Positions 2,107-56,038 of a stretch of 64,000 nt of DNA are shown here, piece by piece. A program made the translations under genes and the position numbers. The stretch comes from a virus, in IMG/VR virus record IMGVR_UViG_3300042914_002629, positions 6,945 to 70,944 of that record, one strand, 5' to 3'. Position 1 is the first letter of the stretch. The number at the start of each line of letters is the position of its first letter. Under the pieces are notes generated by a model. The model was not told where the DNA came from and did no database searches. It saw only the letters and a program-made list of their open reading frames with translations.

Positions 2107-2630
2107 TGGCAAAAACGTCGGCAGAAATGCTGAACATCGATCGCAGGATTTGGGACTACCGCCTCGCCGGCCTCGGCACGGCGCAGATAGCCTCTGCCCT
2201 GGATATGACCCCTGCCCAGCTCGCAAAGCGCATGGAGCGGGTCAAGCGGCAGATCGAGCCCGAGATCAGGGACGCGGCCAAGTCGCATGTGGCCCTTCAG
2301 TACGCCCGGCTGGAGCGCATGATCCGCGCCATGTGGCCACAGGCCATCGGCAATCCGGGACGCGGCAAGCCTGGCGACCGCGACCACATCCCGAAGGTGC
2401 CGCCCGACCAAGGCGCGATCAGGGAGATCGCCGCTCTCATGCGCGACCAGTCCGCGCTGCTGACCAAGTCCATCGGCTCGCTGCCGGCCGCCGCCGGAAC
2501 CTCGGACGCCGCCGACCAGGCCGCAGCCAATGAAGACGAAAACGCAGAAGCCGCAAGATCCACGCTCGCTGATCGAATTGATCGGTTGCTTGCCACCCGA
2601 GCTGCGCAGGGAAGCTCTAGCGGATCTTAG
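2106..2630 (+). CDS. terS: putative terminase small subunit
   Basis: N-terminal HTH-like segment; immediately upstream of TerL. Confidence 0.65.
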   Translation: MAKTSAEMLNIDRRIWDYRLAGLGTAQIASALDMTPAQLAKRMERVKRQIEPEIRDAAKSHVALQYARLERMIRAMWPQAIGNPGRGKPGDRDHIPKVPPDQGAIREIAALMRDQSALLTKSIGSLPAAAGTSDAADQAAANEDENAEAARSTLADRIDRLLATRAAQGSSSGS

Positions 2631-3993
2631 CCTCAACCAAGCGGAGGCCATCCTCTACGACTGGCGGGTGTGGGCGCGTGATGACCAAATCGCCCCGCCT
2701 GGCGACTGGGATCAATGGCTCCTGCTGGGCGGACGCGGCGCGGGCAAGACCCGAACAGGCTCGGAATGGATCAGGGAGCAGGTCCGCAACGGCATCGGCA
2801 AGATCGCGCTGGTGGCCCCGACCGCGGCCGATACCCGAGATGTCATGGTCGAAGGGGACTCCGGCATTCTGTCGGTCTGCTGGAAGCACGACAAAGACCG
2901 CTGGGGCCGCCCCACCGGGCGACCGCTCTATGAGCCTTCCAAGCGCAAGCTGACCTGGGAGAACGGCGCCTATGCGCTGCTGTTCTCGGCCGAGGAACCC
3001 GAGCGCCTTCGCGGCCCGCAGTTCGGCGCCGCGTGGACCGATGAGCTGGCGGCCTGGAAATACCTGATCGACACCTGGGACATGCTGTCGTTCGGCCTCC
3101 GGCTCGGCGACAACCCGCAATGCGTCATTACCACCACGCCGAAGCCGATCAAGCTGCTGAAAGACATCATGGCGGACGCGGGCACGCGCATCTCCAGCGC
3201 GTCGACCTTCGCCAACGCGGCCAACCTGGCGGGCAAATTCCTCAAGCGGGTTCGTGCAAAGTACGAAGGGACGCGACTGGGCGATCAGGAGCTATACGCC
3301 AAGATCCTGGATGACATCGCTGGCGCCCTGTGGAACCGCTCCAATATCGACAAGCACCGGCTGCGGATCAAGTTCGATGAGGCGGGCAACCCCTATCGGG
3401 TCTGGCCCGACCTTGCGCGCATCGTGGTGGCCGTCGACCCCGCGACCACGGCCACCGAGAACAGCGATGAGACCGGCATCATCGTGGCGGGCCGGGGCGT
3501 GGACAAGCGCGGCTACGTGCTGGACGATTGCTCGGGCATCATGTCGCCGGCCGAGTGGGGCGAGGCGGCTGTCCTGGCCTATTGGAACCACATGGCGGAC
3601 GCGGTGGTGTACGAGAGCAACCAGGGCGGCGACATGGTCAGGCACGTGATTAAGTCCAGCGCCGAAAAGCTGCATCGCGAGGGGAAGATCCGCTCGCCAG
3701 AGATCAACATTCGCGGCGTTCACAGCTTCCGCGGGAAAGTGCTTCGGGCCGAGCCCGTCTCGGCGCTATATGAGCAGGGGCGGATATCGCATGTCGGCGG
3801 CTTCGCTGTCCTGGAAGAGCAAATGTGCGCCTTCACCCAGGATTTCGACCGCAAGGCGATGGGCTATTCGCCCGACCGTGTGGACGCGCTGGTGCATGGG
3901 TTCACAGACCTGCTTGCGGACCTGATGGAAATCCCCCTTGTCGATCCGTTCTCGATCGAGGGGCTATCGAAATGGAGGCCGGGAATTGGCTGA
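2530..3993 (+). CDS. terL: terminase large subunit
   Basis: Walker A GGRGAGKT, LRGPQFGAAWTDE Walker B region, VVAVDP nuclease motif, SPDRVDA; true start uncertain. Confidence 0.95.
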   Translation: MKTKTQKPQDPRSLIELIGCLPPELRREALADLSLNQAEAILYDWRVWARDDQIAPPGDWDQWLLLGGRGAGKTRTGSEWIREQVRNGIGKIALVAPTAADTRDVMVEGDSGILSVCWKHDKDRWGRPTGRPLYEPSKRKLTWENGAYALLFSAEEPERLRGPQFGAAWTDELAAWKYLIDTWDMLSFGLRLGDNPQCVITTTPKPIKLLKDIMADAGTRISSASTFANAANLAGKFLKRVRAKYEGTRLGDQELYAKILDDIAGALWNRSNIDKHRLRIKFDEAGNPYRVWPDLARIVVAVDPATTATENSDETGIIVAGRGVDKRGYVLDDCSGIMSPAEWGEAAVLAYWNHMADAVVYESNQGGDMVRHVIKSSAEKLHREGKIRSPEINIRGVHSFRGKVLRAEPVSALYEQGRISHVGGFAVLEEQMCAFTQDFDRKAMGYSPDRVDALVHGFTDLLADLMEIPLVDPFSIEGLSKWRPGIG

Positions 3994-5506
3994 TACCGAA
4001 CCGACCAAGGGTCCGGCGATCCCCAGCGCGATGCAGGAGATCGGCGATAGCGCGCTGCGTCGCACCGGCGGCTATGTGCGGGAAGATTTCCTGCCCGAGC
4101 TGCTGGGGTTGCAGGCGGCGCGGACCTACCGGGAGATGTCCTACAATGACCCGGTGATCGGTGCCATCCAGTTCGCGATGAAGATGCTCATCAGCCGGGC
4201 CGAGTGGGATGTGCAGCCGGCCGACGACACCCCCGCCGCGCAGGAAGAGGGGGAGTTTGTCGAGGGCATGATGGGCGACATGGTGATGTCGTGGGGCTCC
4301 ATGATCATGGAAGCCCTCACCATGCTGACCTACGGCTACGCCCCGATGGAGGTGGTGTGGAAGCGGCGCGGCGGGCAGAACCCCGACAAGATGAAGTCGA
4401 GCAAGTTCGATGACGGGATGATCGTTCCCGCCAAGATCGCCCTGCGCGCGCAGTATTCCATCACGCAATGGGAATTCGATGAAGTCGGGAATCCGACTTG
4501 GTTTTGGCAGATGACCGAAACCCGCGGGATGCTCAAGGTGCCGCTGGCGAAATGCTTGCTGTTCCGGACCACCGAAGAGCTGAACAACCCGTTGGGCTAC
4601 TCGATCCTGCGCAACGCCTATCGGCCGTGGCTGTTCAAAAACCGGATCGAAGAGATCGAAGGCATCGGGATAGAGCGCGACCTGGCGGGCCTGCCGGTGA
4701 TGAAGATCCCGGCCTCATACATGGCCGACGACGCCGACCAGCGGATGCGCAACATCTATGAGATGTGCAAAAACCTTGTGCGCGGCATCCGGCGCGACAA
4801 GGAAGAGGGCGTGATCCTGCCCTCGGACATGCAGCGGGATGGCGAAGGCAAGCTGACCGGAAACCCCGGCTTCGCGCTGGAGCTGCTGTCCACCGGCGGC
4901 AGCCGGCAGTTCGACACCACCAAGATCATTGACCGCTACGACCACCGGATTGCCACCTCGACGCTGGCGGATTTCATCTTCCTGGGCCAGCAGGCGGTGG
5001 GCAGCTTCGCGCTGTCGAGCGACAAGACCGCCCTGTTTTCGCAGGCGATCGGCGGCTTTCTCGACATGATCGAGAACGTGTTGAACAGCCTCGTGGAGAC
5101 CATCTGGCGCCTGAACGGCAAGGATGTGGATCTGATGCCGACGCTGAAGCATGGCGACGTGGAGACCCCGAACCTGACAGAGCTGGGTACGTACATCTCG
5201 GCGCTGGTCGGCGCGGGCGCGCAGCTCTTCCCCGACGTGGACCTTGAGAACCGGCTGCGCAGCTTCGGCGGCCTGCCCGAGGCGCCGGAGGATCGCGAGG
5301 TGGTGGACGATCCGACCACGGCAGCCATCCTCGGACGCGGCGGCACGCCGCAACAGCAGATGGCCCGGCAGCAGGCGGCGAAGGCGGCCACCGATGAGGC
5401 CAAGCAAGCCGAGAAGGACGCGGCGGTGCCCGCACCTGGCGGCAAGCGGCCCGGCGCCGGAACCAAGCCCCCGCCGCAGCGTAGCAACCCGAAGGCAACG
5501 CGCTAA
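3986..5506 (+). CDS. portal protein (DUF935/Mu gp29-like)
   Basis: Follows TerL; NPLGYSILRNAYRPW and GIERDLAGLP motifs; TTG start after GGAGG. Confidence 0.88.
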   Translation: MADTEPTKGPAIPSAMQEIGDSALRRTGGYVREDFLPELLGLQAARTYREMSYNDPVIGAIQFAMKMLISRAEWDVQPADDTPAAQEEGEFVEGMMGDMVMSWGSMIMEALTMLTYGYAPMEVVWKRRGGQNPDKMKSSKFDDGMIVPAKIALRAQYSITQWEFDEVGNPTWFWQMTETRGMLKVPLAKCLLFRTTEELNNPLGYSILRNAYRPWLFKNRIEEIEGIGIERDLAGLPVMKIPASYMADDADQRMRNIYEMCKNLVRGIRRDKEEGVILPSDMQRDGEGKLTGNPGFALELLSTGGSRQFDTTKIIDRYDHRIATSTLADFIFLGQQAVGSFALSSDKTALFSQAIGGFLDMIENVLNSLVETIWRLNGKDVDLMPTLKHGDVETPNLTELGTYISALVGAGAQLFPDVDLENRLRSFGGLPEAPEDREVVDDPTTAAILGRGGTPQQQMARQQAAKAATDEAKQAEKDAAVPAPGGKRPGAGTKPPPQRSNPKATR

Positions 5507-6591
5507 TGGCCGTGGACCCGATCCACGCGGCGGCCGAGCGGCTTGAGCCGAAGATCCGGGACGCGTTCCTGGCGGCCATGGCCCTGATCACCGATCAGGA
5601 CAACATCGACGCCGTGGTGGCGGCGATCATGCGCGGCGATATCGAGGGTGCCCTGTCGGCGCTGGGCCTCGGGCCGAGCGATACCCTGCCAGAGCTGGCC
5701 AGGGCACTCAGGGCGGGCGTCGAGGCCGGCGGGCTGGCATTGCCCCTCACCATGCCCGCGAGCCGCGCTGAAGCCCTGCTGGTGCGGTTTGACATGCTCA
5801 ACCCGCGCACGGTCCAGTTCATGCGCGACTATGAGCTGTCGCTGATCCGGCAGATCAATGAGAAGACCCGCGAGGGCGTCCGAACCTCATTGCTCAACGG
5901 CCTCAACGCAGGCGAGAACCCGCGCACCATCGCGGTGGAGACCAAAAAGGTGCTCGGGCTCACCTCGAAACAGGTGGGCGCAGTTGATAACTTCCGGTTC
6001 GAGCTGGAGCACTTCCACGAAAAGCGAGGCGCCAAGGCGTGGGGCTTGGGCAACTCCATCAACCGGGCGCCCGGCGGCGCGCAAGTCTCGATCCTCGATC
6101 GCAACGGCTTCAACACCGATGGCATTAACGCCCGGCGCCTGCGCGATTTCCGGTTCGACCCGACGCTGAAAAAGGCGATGGAGACCGGCAAGCCGATCCC
6201 GCCCGAGAAGATCGACCAGATGGTCCAGCGGTATCGGGAGAAGATGCTCAAATACCGGGCTGAGACCATCGCCCGCACCGAAGCCCTGCGCGCGGCCAAC
6301 GCGGGCGCGCTGGAGACCTGGAACCAAGCCATTGAGGCGGGCAAGACCACCACGGATCTTGTGCGCAAGCGGTGGATCGTGGCGCACGATGAGCGGACCT
6401 GTCCCGTGTGCCGCCCGATCCCGAAGGCGAACGCGGGCGTCGAGGGCTACGGGATCAGGATAGACCAGCCCTTTCAGACATCGGTGGGTTCGTTCATGAC
6501 AGCCCCCGTCCACCCGGATTGCCGATGCAGCGTAATTTTCCGGGTGCTGGAGACCTGGATGGTGGGCGTGAAAAAGGAGAAGTTCGGATGA
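5506..6591 (+). CDS. MuF / SPP1 gp7-like head morphogenesis protein
   Basis: RAETIARTE, KRW...DERTCPVC and PVHPDCRCS motifs; follows portal. Confidence 0.9.
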   Translation: MAVDPIHAAAERLEPKIRDAFLAAMALITDQDNIDAVVAAIMRGDIEGALSALGLGPSDTLPELARALRAGVEAGGLALPLTMPASRAEALLVRFDMLNPRTVQFMRDYELSLIRQINEKTREGVRTSLLNGLNAGENPRTIAVETKKVLGLTSKQVGAVDNFRFELEHFHEKRGAKAWGLGNSINRAPGGAQVSILDRNGFNTDGINARRLRDFRFDPTLKKAMETGKPIPPEKIDQMVQRYREKMLKYRAETIARTEALRAANAGALETWNQAIEAGKTTTDLVRKRWIVAHDERTCPVCRPIPKANAGVEGYGIRIDQPFQTSVGSFMTAPVHPDCRCSVIFRVLETWMVGVKKEKFG

Positions 6592-6983
6592 GCGTCGATG
6601 GTGTTGCGATCCGCGCTTACAGCGCAGAGATTCCCCTGTACCGGCAGATGTACGCCGACGAGATTTACCTAGCCGGCAAGCGCCTGTTCCCGAACGGCGG
6701 CGGCACCCCGGCGTCGGCGATCGTGAGCCTCACCCTGCCGGCCGGCACCCCCGACAACACCATCACGGCCGTGGCCAACCTGTCCGCCACCACATGCGTG
6801 CTGTCGACCGCCAACACCTACACCGACGCCGCGGTCAAAACCGCCGTGGACAACGCCATCGCTGCGCTTCAGACCAAGATCGACGCGGCCTTCAACACGG
6901 TGGAGCAGAACATCCTGAACGCCGCGAAGAAGATCAATGATGATCTGGCGGCCGAGCGGGCTTATGGGGTGATTGCACCGTAA
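6588..6983 (+). CDS. putative head fiber/decoration protein
   Basis: Ala/Thr-rich with a coiled-coil C-terminus (KINDDLAAERAYGVI); RBS AAGGAG; ATGA overlap. Confidence 0.55.
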   Translation: MSVDGVAIRAYSAEIPLYRQMYADEIYLAGKRLFPNGGGTPASAIVSLTLPAGTPDNTITAVANLSATTCVLSTANTYTDAAVKTAVDNAIAALQTKIDAAFNTVEQNILNAAKKINDDLAAERAYGVIAP

Positions 6984-7172
6984 CGGCCTCTCGGGCCTCA
7001 CAGGCCAGCAGGAAGGCGGCAGCTATGCGATCGAGCGCGGCTGCCGCCGTTTTCATGACCGCCGCACCGATCAGACCGGAGCGGCCCGCGATCATGCGGA
7101 ACCTGCTCGCTGTCGCGTGCAGTTCGTCATAGATTGCGGTTTCCTGCCCATCCATCGACGGACTGTAAGCCG

Positions 7173-10100
7173 ATGCCGGACGATAGCGCCACCATCGAGA
7201 AGCTGACAGGCACCTTCGCCGCTTACAGCCTCGCCCCGCGCAGCGCCAACGTGCTGGCAGCATGGGCGGCCGAGATGGGCGTGCCCAACCCGGTCGCGGC
7301 GAAAGACCTGCATCTCACCACCGTGTACAGCCGGACGCCGGTGCCCGCGTATAGCCCAAATGGGTTGCCTGGGATGCTCCTGCTGGCCGATGGGTTCGGG
7401 CTGGAGCACTTCGGGACCGCGCTGGTGCTCACCGTGACGGCCGAGTGGCTGATGGAGAACGCCGAGCACGCCAAGAGCCTGGGGGCGACCAGCGATTTCC
7501 CATCCTACCGGCCGCACATCACCCTGAGCTACGACGCGCCGGATTTCATGCCGGAGACCCCGCCTCCGTTCGCCCTGCGCCTCGGCGATGAGCGGGTGGA
7601 AGACCTGCGCAAGATGCTCCGGGCCATGACCAGCGTAGCCGTGATGATCAGCAAGGGGTGGAACCCCGGCCAGGCGCGCGTGCCCGCTGGCGGGCCTCAT
7701 GGCGGCCAGTTCGCGGGCAAGGGCGGCACCGGCATGGTCGGCGACATCCAGGCGCCGCACCTCGGGATGCAGGATGGCATGAACGTCGCCACCGGCGACC
7801 CCTACCCCATGACCGCGGTGCGGCCGACCGATGTCGATTTCAACGACAACCCCCACGACCTGGCCGTGTACGTGAAGGGCTACGACCCTGGCAGCCTGGA
7901 TGGCGCCAGGTTCGACCGCTGGACTCCGCCTGGCGACTGGTCGCGCGTCGAGGGGCAAGACCCCAAGCTGGTCGAGGGCAACCTGATCACCGCGCGCGGC
8001 AAGTCGATCGGCTCGGGCGTGATCATCACTGAGCCGGACGGCCGGATCTGGATGGTGGAGCCGACCAACCATTTCGGCGGCTACGAGAACACCTTCCCCA
8101 AGGGCACGGCCGAGGCTGGGCTTTCGTTGCAGGCCAACGCGATCAAGGAAACCTACGAGGAGTCCGGGCTCAAGGTCCGCATCACGGGCGTGCTCGGGGA
8201 CTATGAGCGCACCACCAGCGTGGCCCGCTTCTACCTGGCCGAGCGCACCGGCGGGACGCCGACCGGCGCCGGCCCGGAATCCCAGGCCGTGAAGCTGGCG
8301 CCGCTGCATGAGGCGCGCCGGCTGGCGAACAAGCCCGTGGATCAGAAGATCCTGGATGACTACGAGGCGCACATTGCGGCGCGTCCGGCGCCGGTGGCGA
8401 AGGCGATGGCCCTGCCGCTGCTGCGCGTGATCGCGCAGGCCATGGCGCGCGTGGTCGAGAAGGTGAAGGGGCCGGATGGATATAACCGCTGGCCGGCGGG
8501 CTCCAGCAAGGGCGGCGAATTCGCTCCGAAGGGCGTACACGGCGGCGGCGCGGGCGTTGGGGGCGGAGGTGCCGCGGCTGCGGCCAAGGCCACCCAGGCG
8601 CCTCCGGGCGCATTCCAGCACCAGCTCATGACCGGGAAGAACCCCGACAACACCGCCCTCATCTCGGCGAACAAGGCCATCGCCCATTACGGCAGCCTGG
8701 CGAACAAGGCCGACGTGGCGGGCCTGGCGGCGGCCATGCCACCCGATCCGTCGAAGCAGGCCAGCGGCGGCAACGGCTACACCAAGGCGAAGTTCGCCCA
8801 GTGGCAGGCGGCGATGACCCACGCCATCGCCCAGTCGAACAAGCCGGTCACGGCCGCCACAGGCACCGACCAGACTCCCATGAAGCTGTCGGCCATGACG
8901 CAGGTCGGCGCGAAGCCTGGCGGGTCGGCCAAGGGGGCGATCTACAAGGACGCGGATGGCCAGAAGTGGCTGGTCAAGTCCTACCCGTCGAGCGACCAGG
9001 CCAAGAATGAGGTGCTTGCGGCGAACCTCTACAAGCGCGCTGGGATCGACGCGCCTGAGATGAAGCTGGTCGACCTGGATGGCCAGTTCCACGGCGGGAT
9101 CGGCGTGGCCTCGAAATTCGAGGATGGGACGCTGTCGAAGTTCGACCCGAGCAACCCCGTTGCGGTGGCCAAGGCGCAGGAGGGCTTCGCCGTCGATGCG
9201 TGGCTGTCCAACTGGGATGTGGTCGGCCTGTCGAATGACAACCTGCTGTCGCGTCCGGATGGTAGCCTTGTCCGCATCGATCCGGGCGGGGCGCTGCTGT
9301 ACCGGGCACAGGGCAGCCTCAAGGGCGACGCCTTCGGCGAGACCGTGGGGGAATGGGATAGCCTGCGCGGCATCGGCCCCAACGCCAACGCGCAGGCGGC
9401 GCAGGCGTTCGGCAAGATGACCCCGGAGGCCATGGCCAAGAGTGCCGATCGCGTCCTGTTCATCCCCAACGCCGACATCCGCGCGATCGTGGCCAAGTAC
9501 GGTCCCGGCGATGAGGCGGCCAAGACGGCGCTGGCGGACAAGCTGATCGCCCGCAAGAGCGACCTAGTGAACAAGGCGCTGACCGTGGCGCCCGCGTCGT
9601 TCCTGGCCCCGCCGCCTCCGGTGGCCGCCGCGCCTTCGCCGAAGACCGAGGGCAAGCCTGCCGTGCCCACCTTCACGGGGGAAGCGGCCACCTTCTACGA
9701 CAAGCAAGTGGCCAAGATCGCGGCGATGGGCGAGGGCTCGGATTTCATCCCCAAGATGTATGTGCCGTCGAGCGCGGGAGCGCACGGCAGTGATAATTAC
9801 AAGGCGTATCAGCAGTTCTACCACGACAGCTTCGTGGCGGCGGCCAGCAGCGGGAAGCCGATCGAGCCGCCCTCGATCTTCTACAAGGGCTCCGGCAGCG
9901 TCACCGGCGCCGAGAAGGCCAAGATCGACGCGCAGATCGACAAAGACCCCAAGGGCGTGGACAAGGTCATCACGGCCGACAACTACGCCTATGTCGCCGC
10001 CAAGATGGTTGAGCAGGGTCACGGGGATGTGAATATCGGGTACATCTCGGCGACCAAGGCGCTGAACGATCTTCCCGCGTCGCATTTGTTTGAGCAGACC

Positions 10101-55964: not shown

Positions 55965-56038
55965 GCCTCTTTAGCTCAGTGGTAGAGCAGCCGGCTCCAA
56001 CCCGGCCGATCAGGGTTCGATTCCTTGGGGAGGTGCCA
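55965..56038 (+). tRNA. trnW: tRNA-Trp (CCA)
   Basis: Cloverleaf: TAGCTCAGTGGTAGAGC D-arm, GCCGG-CTCCAAC-CCGGC anticodon arm, GGTTCGATTCC T-arm, discriminator G then CCA. Confidence 0.92.

Follow-up and report, generated by a model that had tools for sequence, protein, structure and literature searches.

We analyzed a giant gene in the head module of an uncultured phage (IMG/VR record IMGVR_UViG_3300042914_002629) and found that it encodes four enzyme domains in a single 1534-amino-acid chain: an Acb1-type 2H phosphodiesterase, a Nudix hydrolase, a CtkA/HipA-like kinase, and an ADP-ribosyltransferase (ART). The protein is probably a phage polyvalent effector, produced late alongside the head proteins, that enters the capsid and reaches the next host together with the DNA. 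The window analyzed, 64,000 nucleotides in length, comprises bases 6945-70944 of the 70,944-base record (CheckV completeness, 100%), and all positions below are those of the window. The gene (protein P0002) occupies 7173..11777 on the plus strand, stop codon included, and was delimited from the listing of open reading frames (ORFs) and by comparison with 99 full-length relatives.

Four enzyme domains in one chain

The gene lies within a single open frame that spans 7134..11777 on the plus strand, and its earliest ATG is at 7173. The closest homologue, P0003, is 53% identical over the full length and its alignment starts at its own residue 1, so 7173 is the likely start. The full-length family of 99 proteins was obtained by a search limited to 843-2685 residues, and residue conservation was assessed in an alignment (A1) of 41 homologues with 31-56% identity. 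The original prediction, made from the letters of the DNA, had assigned the four activities and quoted two HxT motifs, a Nudix box, a set of kinase residues, and an R-STS-ExE signature. Each of these motifs was found where it had been placed, with matches and conservation far beyond what chance would give, and all four domain calls were borne out: Acb1 and Nudix by Pfam cut-offs and the kinase and ART by AlphaFold models and Foldseek, with the ART recovered by profile as well. All four domains are encoded on the plus strand.

The N-terminal domain (residues 13-147; 7209..7613) is of the Acb1 type. It scored 89.8 bits against the Pfam Acb1 family (PF23474; E 1.8e-25; cut-off, 27 bits), with model positions 2-139 of 144 matched, and it matched PDB entry 7t26 at E 9.1e-13. 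Both HxT motifs, H47-L-T49 (nucleotide 7311) and H115-I-T117 (nucleotide 7515), are retained in 9/9 Acb1-bearing relatives. T4-like records annotate Acb1 as 57B or "RNA ligase." Separately, the domain gave a weak match (E 0.015) to C-terminal residues 489-607 of the cyanophage Pam3 portal (PDB 8hds) that spans both H-x-[TS] positions, which hints at a 2H domain physically attached to the portal in a solved virion structure.

Residues 200-396 (7770..8360) form a Nudix hydrolase with a conserved N-terminal extension, identified by Pfam NUDIX (PF00293; residues 280-396; E 1.2e-12; 48.4 bits against a cut-off of 21.1) and by a match to the Ap4A hydrolase PDB 3i7u. Homologue coverage carries the extension back to about residue 200. 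The textbook Nudix box is GX5EX7REUXEEXGU. Here the box runs from G311 to L333 (8103-8171), and G311, E326, E329, E330, G332, and L333, which include the metal-binding Glu residues, are present and invariant in the alignment. Two positions depart from the pattern: position 7 is Leu317 for Glu, and position 15 is Lys325 for Arg. Because Lys325 is invariant in the 41 homologues and Leu317 is the consensus residue (GLSLQ in the alignment consensus), this variation looks like a family trait, not decay.

The third enzyme (residues 566-814; 8868..9614) is a protein-kinase-like domain. An AlphaFold model of residues 430-830, built with the 41 homologues, had a mean predicted local distance difference test (pLDDT) score of 85.9 and exceeded 90 over the domain. 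Compared with CtkA (PDB 3akl), this model gave a VIA-align Z of 17.6 over 219 residues at 3.2 Å and a Foldseek E of 1.9e-5; further fold neighbors were CotH (Z 13.9), HipT (12.3), Fam20C (11.5), and LepB (10.9), and ordinary protein and lipid kinases reached Z of about 8-9. The domain has a Gly-rich loop (K581-G588), and K602, E613, N680, D682, N690, and D703-P-G-G are invariant in the alignment; K602/E613 are assigned to ATP binding, D682/N690 to catalysis, and D703 to metal binding by motif position, not by superposition. The family profile searched against PDB matched ARTs and Nudix enzymes, with no kinase among its 51 hits, so the kinase assignment rests on fold and motifs.

The C-terminal domain (residues 1301-1534; 11073..11774) is an ART of the R-S-E clade, similar to Alt, VIP2, and C3 enzymes. 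Its active site comprises R1413, S1440-T-S1442, and E1486-M-E1488, of which R1413, E1486, and E1488 are invariant in the 41 homologues. The ExE motif is typical of arginine-specific ARTs. When the profile of the 41-sequence alignment was compared with PDB, it matched Lmo0066 (3.3e-13), Vis (8.6e-11), Vip2 (4e-10), CdtA, and iota toxin, all with E values between 3.3e-13 and 1e-6, as well as C3 enzymes. An AlphaFold model of residues 1021-1534 (mean pLDDT, 85.2) matched C3bot, Plx2a, Certhrax, CDTa, and Vip2 in Foldseek at E 1e-9 to 1e-7 with target template-modeling (TM) scores of 0.6-0.74; C3bot gave E 1.5e-9 with TM 0.66-0.68, and 8za7 gave TM 0.74.

Family, partner gene, and distribution

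Three of the domains (Nudix, kinase, and ART) make up the conserved core of a large family found in phages and prophages. The N-terminal module is swappable, with Acb1 as one of several alternatives. BLAST coverage of the individual blocks among the 99 relatives was 98 for the kinase, about 89 for Nudix, and about 62 for the ART, and most relatives keep these blocks colinear, as Nudix - X - kinase - variable - Y - ART (X and Y, the latter comprising Y1 and Y2, are helical modules described below). Pfam content, taken from a precomputed column, recorded Nudix in 90 relatives, ADPrib_exo_Tox in 44, and Acb1 in 9; the ADPrib_exo_Tox figure (44/99) is an undercount, since the query itself was not flagged. 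Other domains at the variable ends of relatives include WGR, ChaB, Zeta-toxin/AAA_33, ART-PolyVal, InPase, and MuF, the last (PF04233) being fused to relatives P0083, P0095, P0098, and P0100.

The kinase domain has a much wider reach. A search with this domain retrieved 4,745 representative clusters (defined at 50% identity) at E <= 0.001, 3,680 at <= 1e-10, and 1,019 at <= 1e-30. Among the 150 matches listed, most kinases lie in proteins of 1,000-7,000 residues, some with up to five matched stretches. Very large relatives include P0101 (3416 amino acids, five matched kinase stretches) and P0121 (7004 amino acids).

The form that combines Acb1, Nudix, kinase, and ART occurs in at least five other clusters and in five fetched loci. 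It is thus recurrent, not unique, and the novelty that the original prediction had claimed for the four-domain combination was not supported by this database survey. One locus (L086) has the order TerL-portal-MuF-Acb1-Nudix-kinase-Y1-Y2-ART-small ORF-protease-capsid, the same as in the window. Among cultured phages, 0/1,318 matching records cover 80% of the giant protein.

Viral loci were collected by scanning IMG/VR with two Nudix peptide patterns, which yielded 587 candidates, 187 relatives, and 80 loci that were kept. Nudix is present in 80/80 of these by construction; the other domains were sought by tblastn at 1e-4, and many loci are cut by contig ends. Within this set, the kinase was detected in 75/80 loci and the ART in 23/80 by this low-sensitivity search. 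MuF lies upstream in 36/80, and 22/80 have MuF together with a protease or capsid protein. Acb1 was found in 4/80 (L006, L024, L039, and L040), and in L039 it comes after Nudix. Bacterial loci, limited to one genome per species, yielded 584 candidates, 167 relatives, and 78 loci kept, with the kinase in 27/78, the ART in 10/78, and Acb1 in 1/78. The closest bacterial loci are prophages in two Thalassobaculaceae metagenome-assembled genomes (MAGs) and one Hyphomicrobiales MAG, and an alphaproteobacterial host for the phage is therefore likely. One bacterial locus has a different arrangement: in Burkholderia sp. Ax-1724 (L116:4975-10812), a 1946-amino-acid frame encodes one family kinase followed by five tandem Nudix domains (Pfam NUDIX E 6e-57).

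A second gene order occurs in phages of ~90 kb (fHe-Yen8-01, ST4, Dolphis, Jeremy, Touem01, Mecenats66, and ECML-606-1), in which a kinase-Y2-ART giant gene is followed by a small gene and a separate Nudix gene. In the GenBank record of fHe-Yen8-01 (OR620963.1), the kinase-ART giant (gp129), the small protein (gp130), and the Nudix protein (gp131) are all labelled phage-particle-associated. No paper on fHe-Yen8-01 was found in the literature, and the Mecenats66 paper makes no mention of Nudix, ADP-ribosylation, or proteomics. Four loci from ~90-kb phages (L068, L069, L073, and L078) have a second kinase domain, located either behind the separate Nudix gene or within it as a fusion, so these genomes carry two family kinases each.

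Directly after the giant gene in the window is a small acidic ORF (11792..12277, plus strand; 161 amino acids; isoelectric point, 4.05). Homologues of this partner were sought among plus-strand ORFs of 80-300 amino acids in 161 stored loci by phmmer followed by two profile rounds. In the fetched loci, 71 homologues were found, 65 of which start between -32 and +61 nucleotides from the end of an ORF of at least 500 amino acids. The kinase was detected by tblastn in 61 of those 65 upstream ORFs; the remaining ones include two GenBank loci absent from that tblastn table. The partner matches fHe-Yen8-01 gp130 at 26% identity (small database; E 5.9e-8), a protein annotated as "particle associated protein." Because the pairing of partner and giant gene is kept in both gene orders, it is the tightest linkage in the system. 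A complex prediction of Y2 plus ART (residues 1165-1534) with the acidic ORF gave a score of 0.00, which counts neither for nor against binding. The partner may be a chaperone, a packaging adaptor, or an inhibitor.

The core enzymes also occur outside phages. In five genomes of the Pseudomonas syringae group (L105, L118, L119, L128, and L132), ORFs of 715-773 amino acids match the kinase mid-chain (36-39% identity) and the Nudix domain at their C terminus (44-48% identity). In L105 the open frame is shorter, at 560 amino acids. Downstream of the L119 ORF come a GH5-like gene and then a gene of the SpvC/VRP3 family. We take HopAI1 to belong to the SpvC family. The gene order in L119 fits the hopAG1-hopAH1-hopAI1 operon described in PMC11002349, and from their position and size we infer that the P. 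syringae-group ORFs are HopAG1. Hulin et al. 2023 (PMC9963460) present HopAG1 as an effector injected by type III secretion that starts with an ART and ends with a Nudix domain; the passages on HopAG1 consulted there do not mention a kinase-like middle domain. With kinase and Nudix present in the ORFs at the hopAG1 position, and an ART in HopAG1, the trio would travel in two kinds of injected protein.

Head-module setting, linker peptide, and helical modules

Upstream of the giant gene are the large terminase gene TerL (2530-3993) and the portal gene (3938-5506), both assigned by PHROGs and Pfam, and a MuF head-morphogenesis gene (5506..6591, plus strand; PHROG 3517, E 1.6e-64; Pfam Phage_Mu_F, E 1.1e-12). 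Downstream is an XkdF/S78-type prohead protease gene (12270..12689, plus strand; Pfam PF14550, E 2.8e-15; PHROGs), followed by a scaffold-like ORF, a scaffold protein, and the major capsid protein (14003-15025), assigned by PHROGs and Pfam. The claim that one ORF lies between MuF and the prohead protease was thus confirmed. The label "head fiber" given to the small ORF just ahead of the giant gene (6408-6983; ~6600-6983) found no support, as this ORF had no family match in PHROGs, Pfam, or NCBIfam. The G+C content of the window is ~66% throughout, and its sole tRNA is a tRNA-Trp (CCA) at 55965-56038.

The Nudix module is flanked by two copies of a linker peptide. Copy 1, R-V-P-A-G-G-P-H-G-G-Q-F (residues 169-180; 7677..7712, plus strand), has R169 and G178 invariant, and copy 2, R-W-P-A-G-S-S-K-G-G-E-F (residues 439-450; 8487..8522, plus strand), has R439, G443, G447, and G448 invariant. 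Across the six frames of the window, the pattern R-[WV]-P-x-G-x(2-5)-G-G-[QE]-[FW] has just these two strict matches. Among 100 stored proteins, which count the query twice (P0001 and P0002), 41 have two copies, 26 have one, and 33 have none. A search of the remaining head proteins encoded in the window (portal, MuF, protease, scaffold, and major capsid protein) did not turn up the peptide, and this phage lends no support to a common function in protease recognition or portal binding.

The remainder of the chain is largely helical. Module X, which precedes the kinase (residues 494-555; 8652..8837), corresponds to helices 65-126 of AlphaFold2 model m35a88f485ee9 (pLDDT about 81-93) and is conserved in about 70/99 relatives. 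The region after the kinase (residues 815-1049; 9615..10319) is weakly conserved and has no Pfam hit; parts of it are covered by no more than a few dozen of the 99 relatives, and its middle by just 2-3. It is followed by Y1, a mobile three-helix module (residues 1052-1140; 10326..10592; AlphaFold2 helices), which is present twice at the N terminus of the giant protein in Yersinia phage fHe-Yen8-01 and Aeromonas phage ST4, and by the helical region Y2 (residues 1170-1300; 10680..11072; pLDDT > 90), which always accompanies the ART. All of these are encoded on the plus strand. A 212-amino-acid ORF at 1499-2137 on the minus strand, in a divergent and probably early region, has a copy of Y1 at its C terminus (Y1 profile, E 3.5e-5; pairwise BLASTP, E 0.035); this small module thus appears to be used in a second gene of the phage. 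No claim is made that X, Y1, and Y2 arose from a single repeated module: self-BLAST was empty, and the Y1 profile matched X and Y2 only non-significantly (i-E-values, 130 and 20), its one significant match being to the minus-strand ORF. An Atlas search with residues 1040-1145 gave no usable hit. Pfam at E <= 1 returned nothing beyond the four enzymes on the giant protein, module X has no family match, and NCBIfam returned nothing near cut-off for P0002, the acidic ORF, the minus-strand ORF at 1499-2137, or the ORF at 6408-6983.

Proposed role and comparison with known systems

That the giant protein is a capsid-packaged, co-injected payload is a reasonable reading that draws on its conserved position in the head module, the "phage particle associated" notes of OR620963.1, and a published concept. 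Packaging and injection of polyvalent proteins have been predicted in print (PMC5512222, PMC9503650), and T4 Alt is cited as a precedent for both (PMC5512222). On entry, the Acb1 domain would hydrolyze the cyclic oligonucleotide signals of cyclic-oligonucleotide-based antiphage signaling systems (CBASS) immediately upon their synthesis. The ART, being of the ExE type, would use NAD+ to ADP-ribosylate arginines of host proteins, like T4 Alt, and the CtkA/HipA-like kinase would phosphorylate host proteins. The Nudix domain would cleave an ADP-ribose- or NAD-type pyrophosphate, whether in free ADP-ribose (ADPR), in NAD-derived signals, or in the ADP-ribose mark. The acidic partner probably serves, in the producing cell, to prevent harm from the giant protein or to maintain it in a state fit for packaging. 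A phage that carries the giant protein in packaged and active form would arrive armed, with an anti-CBASS nuclease present before transcription. This would account for the success of some phages against fast-acting abortive infection, and Acb1, familiar as a soluble early protein, would then also act as virion cargo.

Several points weigh against a packaged protein with these four activities. The case for packaging draws on gene position and on the notes attached to a distant relative, which is about 40% identical and has a different gene order. The giant protein is not fused to MuF or to the portal, and no capsid-targeting signal was identified in it. About 45% of the chain (X, the variable region, Y1, and Y2) has no assigned function. 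As single sequences, the kinase scored 19.5 bits against Pfam HipA_C over residues 586-637 only, below the cut-off of 30.5, and the ART scored 20.3 bits against ADPrib_exo_Tox (PF03496), below the cut-off of 23.4. Lipid and small-molecule kinases (LepB, PI3K, and N-acetylhexosamine kinase) are among the fold neighbors of the kinase, and with two departures from the canonical box, the activity or substrate of the Nudix domain may be unusual.

A tentative possibility, to which we give some weight, is that Nudix, kinase, and ART act in one pathway on a single target, with Acb1 as an unrelated add-on. The ART might, for example, write Arg-ADP-ribose, which the Nudix domain would trim to a phosphoribose beyond the reach of host hydrolases, trimming of ADP-ribose on proteins being within the capacity of Nudix enzymes. 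The kinase would then take as its substrate either that protein or a molecule derived from ADPR. The trio is found together in both gene orders and in two delivery routes, and it stays as the N-terminal modules vary. The kinase accompanies Nudix in 75/80 of the Nudix-selected viral loci, some of which have direct Nudix-kinase fusions (L053, L058, L059, and L062-L067); in the ~90-kb phages, kinase, Y2, and ART are adjacent and Nudix is two genes downstream; and kinase and Nudix share one chain in the hopAG1 position, HopAG1 having an ART as presented in PMC9963460. However, co-occurrence is expected in polyvalent proteins even for unrelated effectors, and the ART was detected in just 23/80 viral loci, many of them truncated and searched by tblastn of low sensitivity. 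A bolder and rather doubtful extension is that Nudix, CtkA-like kinase, ExE-ART, and acidic partner form one portable injected cassette that works along a single NAD/ADP-ribose-centered chain and has been adopted by two unrelated injection machines, phage capsids and type III secretion (HopAG1), with Acb1 added to it in this phage, destroying CBASS signals before phage gene expression. The steps of such a cassette would be an Arg-ADP-ribose mark, Nudix trimming past host erasers, and phosphorylation of the same target or of an ADPR-derived signal.

It is unlikely that the protein is made late and left unpackaged, acting in the producing cell, for example to block abortive-infection signaling while particles are assembled or as a toxin held in check by the acidic protein. 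A late-operon position alone is no proof of packaging, the tightly linked small acidic ORF resembles toxin-immunity pairs, and the best PDB sequence match of the ART is the ART-ARH toxin-immunity pair 8za7. Against this stand the annotation of homologues, including the small partner, as particle-associated in OR620963.1, the relatives fused to MuF, and the fixed slot between MuF and the protease. It is very improbable that the protein has a mainly structural role, inside the head or in ejection, and that its enzyme domains are mere remnants: nearly half of the chain consists of helical modules and linkers without an enzyme signature, but all catalytic residues of the four domains are kept, and those of Nudix, kinase, and ART are invariant in the 41 homologues, which at 31-56% identity argues for selection on catalysis.

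The giant protein belongs to a class that has been described before, of which it is a rich example, and does not represent a new type of system. The polyvalent proteins of phages, as treated by Iyer, Burroughs, Anand, de Souza, and Aravind (2017), include ART, kinase, and 2H domains in their lists (PMC5512222), and the 2H domains were already proposed there to degrade nucleotide immune signals; head-packaged Nudix domains are described in a 2022 NAD/ADPr survey (PMC9503650). The giant protein resembles this class in joining several unrelated effector domains in one polypeptide among portal, MuF, and head genes, and its relatives carry the Pfam ART-PolyVal and InPase domains that were defined from polyvalent-protein work. 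It differs in that no LPD or MPTase domain was detected in it by Pfam. The polyvalent-protein kinase reported in PMC5512222 is of a truncated Ser/Thr/Tyr type, found mainly in Verrucomicrobia-Chlamydia and Bacteroidetes, whereas the kinase here is CtkA/HipA-like and proteobacterial. A fixed core of Nudix, CtkA-like kinase, and ART, the acidic partner, the linker, and Acb1 as a module were not found in the literature, the supplementary architecture lists being outside the search. The linkage of the acidic partner, the linker that brackets Nudix, and the homology to the ORF in the hopAG1 position are what this analysis adds. The window is of value as a clean, complete, and well-delimited example with all catalytic residues intact rather than as a first sighting.

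Each enzyme also has a closer individual counterpart. The N-terminal domain resembles T4 Acb1 (gp57B; PDB 7t26/7t27) in its PF23474 membership (139/144 positions), in both HxT motifs, and in its match to 7t26. Acb1 is known as a stand-alone protein of ~150 amino acids, whereas here it is the N-terminal module of a 1534-amino-acid head-module protein and its activity is predicted. The ART shares with T4 Alt and the Alt/VIP2 family the R-S-ExE active site, the VIP2/C3-like fold, and a gene among head genes; Alt is likened to it by motif, fold, and gene position, not by direct sequence comparison, and the giant protein bears three further enzymes. The kinase has CtkA (JHP0940, Helicobacter pylori) as its best structural neighbor and resembles HipA/HipT in its fold (HipT) and in a weak HipA_C match, but it is just 18% identical to CtkA and falls below the Pfam cut-off for HipA_C. 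The HipA-type catalytic loop is D-x-H-x-x-N, whereas the loop here is N-W-D-x6-D-N.

The Nudix-kinase-ART trio is very common, biochemically untouched, and shared with a plant-pathogen effector of unknown mechanism, so solving the phage chemistry would inform both fields. HopAG1 and the giant protein are both candidate injected effectors built from the same enzymes. The ORFs in the hopAG1 position differ in having the reversed order ART-kinase-Nudix and neither Acb1 nor Y1. HopAG1 is delivered by type III secretion into plant cells, whereas the giant protein is proposed to be delivered by the capsid into bacteria.

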